Source: an uncultured Gammaproteobacteria bacterium (lineage in GTDB: Bacteria > Pseudomonadota > Gammaproteobacteria > Magnimaribacterales > D2472). From it: a stretch of 51,467 nt of DNA. Made by a program: the position numbers and the translations under genes. Position 1 is the stretch's first letter. Every line of letters begins with the position of its first letter. Positions 37,316 to 44,065 of this stretch are shown one piece after another. The stretch is from contig CAYUHD010000004.1 in the NCBI GenBank assembly GCA_964444385.1, positions 1 to 51,467 of the forward strand, given 5' to 3'. Under the pieces are notes generated by a model. That model was not told the DNA's origin and did no database searches. It was given only the letters and a program-made list of their open reading frames with translations.

Positions 37316-40668
<3,353 letters not shown>

Positions 40669-40669
40669 C

Positions 40670-42868
40670 CTATGAAGCGGCTAATTTTAGCGCTTCTTTT
40701 ACACCAACTGATACGACTCTAGAAACACCTGCTTCCTGCATCGTGATTCCCATTAAATGATCGCTTTTTTCCATAGAAATTTTATTATGCGTAATAAATA
40801 TAAATTGAACCCTATCAGACATCTCCTCAACCATAGCCACAAACCTGGTAGCATTTATATCATCCAGTGGCGCATCAACCTCATCCAACATACAGAATGG
40901 AGCTGGATTCAATTCAAACAATGCAAATACTAGAGAAAGAGCAGTCAAAGCTTTCTCTCCACCAGATAGTTGATAGATTGTCGCATTTTTTTTGCCGGGA
41001 GGCTGGGCTGAAAGTGTAATTCCTGAATTTAAAGAATCTCCATCAATTAATTGCAAAGCAGCTTTACCACCACCAAAAAGCCTCGGAAAAATCTCATTTA
41101 TTTTTGAATTCACAGCATTGAAGCTTTCATCAAACTTCATCTTAGACTCAACATCTATTTTCTTGATTGCACTTTGGAGCTTGTCTAGAGCCTCATTTAA
41201 ATCTTCTAATTGGGAATCTAATTCATCTATACGTTTAGCCTCCTCAGCAATCTCATCTGGAGCTGCCAAATTAATTGCTCCTAAAGAAATAATAGAAGAT
41301 TGAATGTTTGCTAGAGAAGTTTCAAGATTCGAAAGATCCATTTCTTGGAAATCCTCTGATTTAAGATCAGAAATAGAAATTCCAGCCTTTTTTAAAGTTT
41401 CTGATGCATTATCTAAATTAACTTCAAATGTTCTAAGATCCAGCTTTAAATTATTTAATTGCTCTTCCAAAGAGCGAAGATCTAAAGCAGCAATAGATTT
41501 TTTATTCTCAACATCTTGTATAGATACATCCACAACGGATTGTTTATGGCGAATAGAATTTAATTCTGATTCTGCTGTTGAGCTCTTTTCAACTAATTCT
41601 GCAAGATCACTTTCAGCTTTAAGTTTATTTTCTTTAGCTTGATTTAGCTGCTCGGAAATTTCATTCTGTCTAACTAAATATTCATTAGTTATATTCTTAG
41701 ATTGGGCTGAGGTAATTTTTAAGATACTAATTAATAACTCTTTTAACTCAGATGCTTTGCTACGTATAAAATCTGCACTTGAACCAAAATCTTTTAGAGC
41801 CTCAGAAATTGCATCTAATAAATGCATAGCTTTTTCTTTAGGGCTTATATTCTCTATACTTGATTCATTATCCAATGCCTCTGCATATCTCTCCTTTGCT
41901 TTAAGCAAATCTTCTTCATATCGAAAAATTGCCTTATTAATGTTTTGTAAGTTTGTTTCCTGTCTGGCAATCTCAGAACCAATTGTATAAAAGTTCTTTT
42001 GAGCTTCCTCGAAAGCTGACAAAACAGATGCATGCTCTGTCTTAATTTGATCAATTGATGTCTGATGAGTATTAACCTCTGCTGACTTTACAATTACTTG
42101 ATTATTCAGCTGAGAGATTTTTGAACTAAGAGAATCTTTTTTAGCTTTAGCGCTTAAAGTATTTAAAATTGAAATGTTTAACTTGAATTCTTTTTCTTCA
42201 ATTTGTAATTTTTTATACTTTTCTGCAGCTTTGGCTTGATTCTGTAACCGATTAACTAGTCTCTGAATCTCATCTCTAATATCTTTTACCCTTGATAAAT
42301 TTTCTTTAGTTTTTTTAATCCTCTGCTCTGTCTCTTTTCTTCTCTCTTTGTACTTAGATATTCCTGCTGCCTCTTCAATAAAGACTCTCATTTCTTCAGG
42401 TTTAGCGCTCACTATCTTTGACACCATACCCTGCTCAATAATGGCGTAGCTTCTTGGCCCAAGACCTGTTCCTAAAAAGATATCTTGAACATCTTTTCGC
42501 CTGCATCTTGTATTATTCATAGAATAGTGAGACTGTCCGTCCCTAGTCATCATTCTTTTTATCGAAATTTCATTGTATTTGGCATACGTACCGCCCAATT
42601 TTCCCATAGAATTATCAAAAAGAAGCTCGATGCTACATTGACCAGATGGCTTTCTTAAATCTGAACCATTGAAAATAACGTCGGACATAGACTCACCACG
42701 CAAGTTCTTTGCAGATAATTCCCCAAGAACCCATCTCACAGCATCAATAACATTAGATTTACCGCACCCATTGGGGCCAACAACGGCAACCATATTTGTA
42801 GGGAAAGATATCCTCGTGGGGTCCACGAAACTTTTGAATCCAGCCAGTTTGATGTGTTTAAGCTGCAT
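40670..42868 (-). CDS. smc: Chromosome segregation protein SMC, unusually short (732 aa) and apparently hinge-less
   Basis: GFKSF, Walker A GPNGCGKSN, LRG, Q-loop IIEQG, EEAAGI, LGAINL, PPGKK, signature LSGGEK, Walker B/D-loop LDEVDAPLD, ITH. Confidence 0.92.
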   Translation of the reverse strand: MQLKHIKLAGFKSFVDPTRISFPTNMVAVVGPNGCGKSNVIDAVRWVLGELSAKNLRGESMSDVIFNGSDLRKPSGQCSIELLFDNSMGKLGGTYAKYNEISIKRMMTRDGQSHYSMNNTRCRRKDVQDIFLGTGLGPRSYAIIEQGMVSKIVSAKPEEMRVFIEEAAGISKYKERRKETEQRIKKTKENLSRVKDIRDEIQRLVNRLQNQAKAAEKYKKLQIEEKEFKLNISILNTLSAKAKKDSLSSKISQLNNQVIVKSAEVNTHQTSIDQIKTEHASVLSAFEEAQKNFYTIGSEIARQETNLQNINKAIFRYEEDLLKAKERYAEALDNESSIENISPKEKAMHLLDAISEALKDFGSSADFIRSKASELKELLISILKITSAQSKNITNEYLVRQNEISEQLNQAKENKLKAESDLAELVEKSSTAESELNSIRHKQSVVDVSIQDVENKKSIAALDLRSLEEQLNNLKLDLRTFEVNLDNASETLKKAGISISDLKSEDFQEMDLSNLETSLANIQSSIISLGAINLAAPDEIAEEAKRIDELDSQLEDLNEALDKLQSAIKKIDVESKMKFDESFNAVNSKINEIFPRLFGGGKAALQLIDGDSLNSGITLSAQPPGKKNATIYQLSGGEKALTALSLVFALFELNPAPFCMLDEVDAPLDDINATRFVAMVEEMSDRVQFIFITHNKISMEKSDHLMGITMQEAGVSRVVSVGVKEALKLAAS

Positions 42869-42893
42869 TAATTTATCCTTTACCCATTTTAAA

Positions 42894-43682
42894 CTATTGT
42901 TCCTTTTTTAACCATTCGTTGGCATAAAAAAATAGTTCCTCTTGGTTGTCTTTTGAATACTTTAAATCTAAAGATTTAAATGATTGGAAGGTCGTATTAG
43001 AGCAATTGGCTTGTGCTTCAACTTTAATAATTTCTTGTTGCAAAAAAGCTGATGTAATATCAAAACCCCTGACCAAAGAATTTGATTTGTCTAATGTAAA
43101 AGGCTTATTTATATCTGGGGACAAAATTTCTCTGGTTGCAATATCTAGCTCTGGACCATTAGGAATGGAAACAAAAAATTTCAATGATTGCAATTTGCAA
43201 TTATGTGGGCTCTCAATGTTTATTAAAACTTTTGAATTTCCAAGGTTTGGATATTTTGCATCTCTTAAATCTGCCAACAAGTTGAAGATTGGAACTTGAA
43301 AGTTATCTCCTAAAAACTTTAAATTCAATGCCTTTAGAATGCTCTCTGCAGAGTTAAATGATTTAAGTTCTAAAGATTTATAAAAAACTTGAACTCCAAG
43401 CAGAAAGGATTCATCTTCTGAGGTCGTATTTTCTAAATATTTATTTATTAAAAAGTCATCAAATTCTCTATCTTGAATGATAGTATTAAGAACAGAATCA
43501 GATTGAGTTGCCTTAACCCATGACCCAGTCAAAGAGTTGCTAGAAAGAAAATTTAAAACAAACCCACCGAAACACAAGAACGTAAATAAAAATATTAAAG
43601 ATTTTTGATTTGATAATGGTTGTAGTAAATAAGAAATTACAGGTAATAATAAAATTACTGAAAGGGAAATGATCAATAACAT
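42894..43682 (-). CDS. ccmI: Divergent cytochrome c biogenesis protein, CcmI/CycH-like
   Basis: Directly after ccmH (TAATG overlap at 43680-43684). Two N-terminal TMs; C-terminal PFTLDKSNSLVRGFDITS resembles the CcmI C-terminal domain. Confidence 0.55.
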   Translation of the reverse strand: MLLIISLSVILLLPVISYLLQPLSNQKSLIFLFTFLCFGGFVLNFLSSNSLTGSWVKATQSDSVLNTIIQDREFDDFLINKYLENTTSEDESFLLGVQVFYKSLELKSFNSAESILKALNLKFLGDNFQVPIFNLLADLRDAKYPNLGNSKVLINIESPHNCKLQSLKFFVSIPNGPELDIATREILSPDINKPFTLDKSNSLVRGFDITSAFLQQEIIKVEAQANCSNTTFQSFKSLDLKYSKDNQEELFFYANEWLKKEQ

Positions 43683-44065
43683 TAAATCCTGCGCTTTAGA
43701 AAAAACATTGCTAGCATTATTGAAAAAAATATAAATGGTCCAAACCATAAAAAATAATTCGTACCTTCTAATGCGGGTCTGTAATCTGAAAAATTACCAA
43801 ATCTTTCTGAAACATACGTTTTTATTTCTTCATTAGAAGAGCCAGCAAGAACTAGTTCATAGACCTTATTTTTTAGATCACGGGATACAGGTGCGTCAGA
43901 ACTAGCAATGCTACCACTAGTACATTTTGGGCATCTTATCTCTGAGATCAATGAGTAGAATCTTTTTTCCTGCAACGAATCTTCAAATTCATAAACTATC
44001 TCATTAAAAGCTGGTATCGATAAGATAAAAAAAGAAAAAATTATTATTAATTTTTTGATCATCAT
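43682..44065 (-). CDS. ccmH: Cytochrome c-type biogenesis protein CcmH
   Basis: IRCPKC (LRCxxC-type), SIASSDA, ERFGNF, LWFGP. Confidence 0.9.
   Translation of the reverse strand: MMIKKLIIIFSFFILSIPAFNEIVYEFEDSLQEKRFYSLISEIRCPKCTSGSIASSDAPVSRDLKNKVYELVLAGSSNEEIKTYVSERFGNFSDYRPALEGTNYFLWFGPFIFFSIMLAMFFLKRRI

Follow-up and report, generated by a model that had tools for sequence, protein, structure and literature searches.

A hinge-less, short-armed Smc encoded in the smc–zipA–ligA locus of a SAR86 bacterium

The hinge is regarded as a universal and essential part of SMC proteins (SMC standing for structural maintenance of chromosomes), in which it provides the constitutive dimerisation site as well as a proposed DNA-binding site and gate. 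RecN, by comparison, combines a head of the SMC type with a short antiparallel coiled coil, has no hinge, and dimerises at the tip of the coil. Here we describe the smc gene of an uncultured gammaproteobacterium of the SAR86 group (GTDB order Magnimaribacterales), located in a 51,467-nucleotide (nt) stretch of contig CAYUHD010000004.1 (the window), the product of which lacks a hinge. Two published systems come close to it. In the work of Buermann et al. (2017, PMC5344682), Bacillus subtilis Smc tolerated shortening of its arms to particular lengths, and the Figure 5 legend names a functional B. subtilis Smc chimera in which the hinge is exchanged for a Rad50 zinc hook; together these make a non-hinge apex plausible. 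More recently, an abundant cluster of "hinge-less" SMC proteins from ocean metagenomes, with AlphaFold models, was assigned to Actinomycetes (Sussfeld et al. 2025, PMC12153180); this cluster (cluster 9) branched with actinobacterial seed sequences, and the words "SAR86" and "Gammaproteobacteria" have no occurrence each in the main text of that paper. Literature searches combining SAR86 with SMC, hinge or condensin returned no description of a hinge-less Smc from SAR86. As a claim of novelty, the "new condensin architecture" proposed in the initial annotation goes too far, since hinge-less ocean SMCs, albeit with an assignment to Actinobacteria, were published in 2025 (PMC12153180).

The smc open reading frame (ORF) lies at positions 40670..42868 on the minus strand and encodes 732 amino acids (aa) followed by a stop codon (40670-40672), with no internal stop. 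A Pfam search of the 732-aa protein matched SMC_N over residues 3-716 and gave no match to SMC_hinge (PF06470). TIGR02168 (SMC_prok_B, the NCBIfam equivalog model for bacterial Smc) scored 819.2 bits against a cut-off of 567.35, with model positions 1-338 corresponding to Smc residues 2-340 and positions 864-1179 to residues 409-721. The roughly 525 model positions in between (339-863), which comprise the hinge and the outer arms, had no counterpart and were replaced by ~70-90 all-helical residues. All of the head motifs were present at the residues given in the initial annotation: GPNGCGKS at 31, IEQG (Q-loop) at 144, EEAAGI at 165, LGAINL at 529, LSGGE at 634, DEVD at 662 and ITH at 692, with the FGSS segment at 361. 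The ATPase residues were invariant across 46 aligned SMCs. The best solved relatives, by fold and by sequence, were Smc heads (phmmer to the B. subtilis-type heads 5XG3/3ZGX, E 1e-106), and the head shared 50-55% identity with gammaproteobacterial Smc heads. Models for RecN, Rad50 and other SMC-like proteins stayed far below their cut-offs. The 732-aa protein is thus a true orthologue of the bacterial Smc of Smc–ScpAB; since PF06470 is not matched, it is filed as a derived variant and not as a canonical Smc member.

The flanks of the central region could be aligned with full-length gammaproteobacterial SMCs up to residue ~331 and from residue ~417. Between these flanks the SAR86 protein has 87 residues, compared with 524-530 in four outgroup gammaproteobacterial proteins, indicating that ~440-460 aa are missing and that Smc has lost its hinge here together with the distal portion of each arm strand; the initial estimate of ~450 missing residues, with loss of the hinge and arms of about half length, agrees with this alignment and with the gap in the TIGR02168 match. 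In the other three families of the order, the same interval comprises ~96, 165 and 177-181 residues, so that both the extent of the loss and the new tip sequence vary between the four families. An antiparallel coiled-coil arm with a joint is still present, the AlphaFold2 model having helices at residues 170-236, 244-339 and 343-494 and joint loops at 495-535. The arm measures ~190 residues per strand, about half of the usual length (~340 in canonical Smc). Residues 300-450 contain one glycine and no GG, and the cysteines of the protein are found only at positions 35, 78, 122 and 659, with none between residues 123 and 658.

Trivially, this short protein could stem from gene decay, or from an error of assembly or binning by which a normal smc gene lost its middle part. 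The assembly is indeed fragmented (90 contigs, 86% complete). However, the exact 732-aa protein was found on eight contigs, the longest of 300 kb, and dozens of 732-aa relatives at 91-98% identity were found in sources from ENA, JGI and NCBI. A scan of species-representative genomes yielded 24 loci, mostly from SAR86 cluster bacterium and many from single-cell amplified genomes, and this form was also present in genomes of the order that consist of one contig. Contigs from the runs of other studies that were aligned to the gene showed no joint, and the only indel listed was at 42869, outside the coding sequence. In particular, the interval 41600-41900, for which the initial annotation had called for read support, is bridged by a 785-nt contig of an unrelated study that covers 41472-42256, across the apex, without a gap, joint or indel. 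Contigs from RNA libraries (X15, an oligo-dT library) also cover 41637-41917 with 1-3 differences, which is no proof of transcription.

Decay was further addressed by comparing ten species of the genus, in all of which Smc is exactly 732 aa long without an indel. The medians of the ratio of nonsynonymous to synonymous substitutions (dN/dS; Nei–Gojobori, over pairs of the ten species) were 0.018 in the N head, 0.043 in the N arm, 0.137 in the tip (341-395), 0.072 in the C arm and 0.021 in the C head, with an overall value of ~0.04; the ratios are approximate because dS is near saturation (~1). Every region of smc thus has a dN/dS far below 1, and the gene is under strong purifying selection. 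Together with the uniform absence of a hinge from 151 genomes described below, these results refute, for practical purposes, the explanation by decay or artefact.

To ask how far the loss extends, we searched for the hinge with its profile model. The model gave no match in the organism's own genome in a six-frame search, even at E<=1, and matched none of 151 genomes of the order, 55 of which are at least 90% complete. In contrast, it matched three of three outgroup gammaproteobacterial SMCs (E 2e-7 to 1e-13) and also two short-armed SMCs of 990 and 1003 aa, so the order-wide negative is meaningful. A split gene with a separate hinge ORF was ruled out by the same searches. The order was sampled in 41 genomes, namely the organism's own, 24 further members of the genus and 16 genomes that represent the three other families; smc was present in 36, and the five without it are 58-87% complete. 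The smc frames of the 16 genomes from the other families were 733-843 aa long, in some cases in single contigs at 91-97% completeness, and the longest frames anywhere in this sample reached 1002 aa. Outside the order, we searched a class-wide sample that included 120 other genomes, each from a different family. In total 121 genomes were searched, of which 111 matched smc at E<=1e-30, and every match listed outside the order lies in a frame of at least 1154 aa except in four genomes (G280, G182, G260 and G274), where contig ends cut or split smc. Two of the genomes in this sample (G284 and G207) are unpublished; each contributes an ordinary full-length smc, and the result holds irrespective of them.

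Among the best 150 of 1.84 billion protein representatives, seven were shorter than ~1010 aa, and five of these seven lacked a hinge (one being a 639-aa fragment). The two short-armed SMCs mentioned above, P0170 (990 aa) and P0182 (1003 aa), keep a recognisable hinge (PF06470 E 1e-5 and 5e-12, respectively), indicating that arm shortening and hinge loss are separable. The nearest ESM Atlas clusters were other short SMC_N proteins, of 810 and 905 aa from Pseudomonadota, 872-919 aa from Spirochaetota and 742 aa from Minisyncoccota; we regard all of them as leads only, and those of 905, 872-919 and 742 aa may represent other shortened or hinge-less lineages.

We then examined whether the partners of Smc are retained. 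In the organism's own genome, scpA and scpB are adjacent on contig C18 and parB is on contig C25; ScpA and ScpB were each detected in 58 of the 58 genomes of the order that were searched. The N-terminal domain of MukB (PF04310) matched neither the Smc protein nor the genome, and no second SMC was found in this 86%-complete genome, the other SMC_N matches being RecF-, UvrA- and ABC-type frames. A second full-length smc or a MukBEF system was ruled out by these profile searches within the limits of that completeness; because such absences from a single incomplete genome are weak, it is the order-wide counts that carry the argument. No RecN was found above the TIGR00634 cut-off in any of the 58 genomes, the weak matches falling on smc or recF frames, so the hinge-less Smc is the only long coiled-coil SMC-family ATPase detected in them. 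The genome search outlined in the initial annotation thus recovered ScpA, ScpB and ParB and neither a second smc nor MukB.

The missing RecN raises the question of whether the protein might have been repurposed and now serve, like RecN, chiefly as an ATPase for DNA repair or tethering instead of as a condensin, all the more as a head with a short antiparallel coil and no hinge resembles RecN. Against this, the RecN model scored only 31.9 bits on the protein (cut-off 407.85), ScpA, ScpB and ParB are kept, and the cell-cycle gene order smc–zipA–ligA is conserved. We therefore consider a change of function highly improbable. The best-supported reading is that the 732-aa protein is the functional and only Smc of the SAR86 Smc–ScpAB complex, the function itself being deduced from its sequence and its partners. 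The initial annotation had also proposed that the loss evolved rather than being accidental, and this is what the order-wide distribution, the kept partners and the strong selection indicate: the searches uncovered neither a hinge match nor full-length relatives in the order nor a second smc, and selection was not relaxed.

Next, we turned to the apex that takes the place of the hinge. The central segment had been placed at residues 340-395, which correspond correctly to nt 41684-41851, and the 46-aa sequence quoted for it represents residues 341-386. In 30 short-form sequences of the family, residues S342, P343, E345, K346, A347, L375, L379, I382, L383, I385, Q389, K391, E396 and R400 are at least 90% conserved, defining a family-wide tip motif, LSPxEKA ... 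ILxIAxxQSK. None of these 30 sequences has a cysteine in residues 330-400. FGSS itself varies, with 4-5 residues deleted at exactly this point in three genera, as expected of a loop. AlphaFold2 modelled the full-length Smc with a pLDDT (predicted local distance difference test) of 81.5 and a fragment of residues 290-450 with a pLDDT of 91.2, and both models were all-helical in the centre, with no globular domain. Taken literally, the register of the model would set 96 residues (244-339) against 152 (343-494) above the joint; since strands of such unequal length cannot close a two-stranded antiparallel coil, we do not trust the AlphaFold2 register at the apex. We also derived the register independently from the B. 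subtilis Smc truncation constructs given in PMC5344682 (e.g. 1-438/733-1186 and 1-398/773-1186), in which the N-strand and C-strand residue numbers add up to 1171. Mapped via TIGR02168, on the assumption of a near one-to-one alignment of B. subtilis Smc to the profile, this register makes the strands meet near residue 358 ± ~5, beside FGSS (361-364).

From these data we infer a tip consisting of a break (340-342), helix A (343-360) beginning with the conserved LSPxEKA, a loop (361-364), helix B (365-386) and a link (387-395) with the conserved ILxIAxxQSK, in which the two conserved motifs would probably face each other at the base of the tip. The strongly hydrophobic fraction of helices A and B (family medians 0.33 and 0.36) is higher than that of the arms (0.25-0.27), and the extra hydrophobic residues would fit an additional packing surface. 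A prediction of the tip as a homodimer (residues 290-450, two copies) gave a score of 0.26 against a mark of 0.42, which counts neither for nor against binding, and a comparison of the tip profile with PDB sequences was uninformative, since it matched nothing but designed proteins of helical fold and generic coiled coils (best E 4e-4). Elsewhere in the order, one other family shares an "SP" helix-start motif (e.g. GAMSPDF) with this one, another has an "EGxW" motif at its tip, and the smallest forms of the other families (732-734 aa) carry an aromatic, glycine-rich stretch such as KKGFDFGKGKG.

On this basis we propose the following mechanism. A deletion in the common ancestor of the order would have removed the hinge along with the distal portion of each arm strand. 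ABC head, neck and joint would have been left, with ~95 residues of upper arm on each strand, and the arm would end in the small all-helical tip, built as break, helix A, variable loop and helix B. Two Smc molecules would be bridged at their heads by ScpA/ScpB as usual, and the tips, which are hydrophobic and bear the motif, may join in a helical bundle comparable to the contact at the RecN apex or to the Rad50 zinc hook, so as to replace the hinge as the second closure of the ring. Judging from helix length, such a ring would have arms of ~190 residues or ~28 nm; it would presumably be loaded through ParB and act in chromosome organisation. A working Smc–ScpAB with a small helical tip in place of the hinge is the reading best supported by the data; that the tips dimerise and close a shorter ring is in our judgement somewhat more probable than not, the dimerisation, the closure and the loading by ParB being inferred.

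Several observations weigh against this proposal. The tip is the least constrained part of Smc (dN/dS 0.137), and its sequence is not conserved between the four families, which differ in its motifs as well as in its length; this would be unexpected for an indispensable dimerisation domain. In addition, both AlphaFold2 models break the helix only at 340-342 and continue it unbroken through FGSS, so that the hairpin of helices A and B rests on the indels and the register argument. The central FGSS turn described in the initial annotation accordingly has the indel pattern and the B. subtilis register on its side, both favouring a loop at 361-364, and the AlphaFold2 helix against it.

The same observations would be accounted for by an open-armed Smc, in which the tip does not dimerise and only ATP-dependent engagement of the heads, bridging by ScpA and perhaps lateral zipping of the arms keep the two Smc molecules together. 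Such a complex would have a kleisin compartment but no closed arm compartment, and DNA would be clamped or bridged rather than enclosed in a ring. Completely different tip sequences in the four families, the highest dN/dS within smc and a predicted apex that is only a plain helical end are all in keeping with it, as is the fact that the best-conserved parts are the heads, neck and joint, which are needed for ScpA binding and ATP-driven DNA clamping. On the other hand, helices A and B have more hydrophobic residues than would be required for a two-stranded coil, and in PMC5344682 the B. subtilis hinge was replaceable only by another dimerisation module. Furthermore, the family-wide tip motif stays at the apex even where ~130 residues per strand have been added to the arms, which is hard to explain if the apex does nothing. 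We therefore regard open arms as possible but not probable, and retain dimerising tips as the preferred reading.

The lengthened arms occur in a second, ~995-aa form of Smc within the family. Pairwise comparison showed that residues 1-345 of the long form match residues 1-345 of the short form, that residues ~327-673 match short-form residues 210-553 at 44% identity, and that residues 658-995 match short-form residues 395-732 at 79% identity. Within the inner stretch lie a second N-arm, the tip and another C-arm that has a joint motif (INLAAPDE) of its own, a layout indicating that a copy of the arm hairpin is nested at the apex. The arms are thereby longer by ~130 residues per strand, with the tip motif still at the apex. 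In a sample of 41 genomes of the family, smc was found in 39, as the short form in 22 and the long form in 17; the long form occurs in part of the organism's own genus, in one of the two genomes of g17 and in all sampled genomes of g12 (eight) and g15 (five). A tree of the first 335 residues requires at least three changes to account for this distribution. Conversely, the inner modules of all seven long forms analysed form one clade (support 99/98), which indicates that the module arose once and was afterwards either lost or passed between lineages. A composite reading would combine these observations with the open-armed one: Smc–ScpAB may work without apical closure, or with a minimal two-helix tip only, and the arm length may have toggled between ~730 and ~995 aa by means of a single-origin "arm cassette" that now resides in three separate branches of the family. 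We consider this composite tentative and, taken as a whole, unlikely.

The features of Smc and its downstream neighbours are summarised in Table 1. As the Pfam and NCBIfam matches of the neighbours confirmed, smc is followed directly by a zipA-like gene and ligA on the same strand, in agreement with the smc–zipA–ligA locus named in the initial annotation. The zipA-like product has ZipA_C at residues 69-186 and scored 29 bits with the full-length ZipA model TIGR02205 (cut-off 119.65); it appears to lack most of the long linker found in typical ZipA. Upstream of smc are ccmF, a thiol:disulfide (redoxin-type) gene and ccmH, with a 284-aa ORF (42894-43748, minus strand) between ccmH and smc for which neither Pfam nor NCBIfam gave a match at the thresholds used. 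The interval 37316-42868 on the minus strand is a tightly packed gene string, in which ligA overlaps the next gene, encoding an SLT_4 transglycosylase, by 23 nt.

Table 1. Regions of the smc gene and downstream genes of the locus (positions in the window; AF2, AlphaFold2; res, residues)
Feature	Position	Strand	Basis
N-terminal half of ATPase head, res 1-165	42374..42868	-	Walker A 31-38, Q-loop Q146; phmmer to 5XG3/3ZGX
N-strand of head-proximal coiled coil (neck), res 166-236	42161..42373	-	AF2 helix 170-236
Helix break in N-strand at joint, res 237-243	42140..42160	-	AF2 DSSP
Upper arm, N-strand, res 244-339	41852..42139	-	AF2 helix 244-339
Putative apex/tip module, res 340-395	41684..41851	-	Family alignments; no Cys; AF2 break only at 340-342
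Upper arm, C-strand, res 396-494	41387..41683	-	AF2 helix to 494
Joint, C-strand, res 495-535, including LGAINL 529	41264..41386	-	AF2 loops and short helices; motif position
C-strand neck helix (res 536-598) and C-terminal head half	40673..41263	-	LSGGE 634, Walker B DEVD 662, H-loop H694
zipA-like gene, 204 aa	40054..40668	-	ZipA_C E 3e-14; starts 1 nt past the smc stop
ligA, 719 aa	37902..40061	-	NF005932 812 bits and Pfam domains; overlaps zipA by 8 nt

A whole order of abundant, genome-streamlined marine bacteria has thus discarded the hinge and half of each arm while keeping the ATPase, the joint, ScpA, ScpB and ParB. If Smc–ScpAB indeed acts there with no or minimal apical closure, a hinge-closed SMC ring would not be required for bacterial chromosome organisation. 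The SAR86 Smc is a natural minimal Smc for biochemistry and single-molecule work, with which one could ask whether apical closure is needed, what the smallest module is that provides it, and how much freedom there is in arm length. Together with the 2025 report on marine Actinobacteria, as represented in the main text of PMC12153180, the SAR86 case suggests that the hinge was lost more than once in ocean bacterioplankton.

Among the known systems, canonical Smc–ScpAB (B. subtilis type, TIGR02168; 5XG3, 3ZGX) shares with the SAR86 protein the head, neck, joint and ATPase motifs, the ScpA/ScpB/ParB set and the locus; the SAR86 Smc differs in having no hinge, ~190 instead of ~340 residues per arm strand and an all-helical apex. 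We tried to fit its arm length to the modes of 163, 238 and 341 aa given in PMC5344682, and the fit was not clean, the strands having ~190 residues here, ~235-240 in two of the other families and ~320 in long-form Smc. RecN is similar in its head and short antiparallel coil without a hinge, but it is set apart by the TIGR00634 score far below cut-off and by the ScpAB partners of the SAR86 Smc. Rad50/SbcC likewise combines a head and coiled coil with a non-hinge apex; the SAR86 protein, however, has no CxxC and scored 42-52 bits with Rad50 models, the cut-offs of which are at least 700. The engineered Mini-Smc and Smc–Rad50 zinc-hook chimera (PMC5344682, in the parts considered here) resemble it in their shortened arms and in an apex far smaller than the hinge. 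Unlike the chimera, the SAR86 Smc is natural, and its apex lacks cysteines and so has no zinc hook; dimerisation of this apex is only proposed. Finally, the PMC12153180 cluster, as described in the main text, likewise comprises SMC homologues that are abundant in the sea, keep the head and coiled coil intact and have neither a hinge nor CxxC; the present Smc differs from it in taxonomy, being gammaproteobacterial (SAR86).

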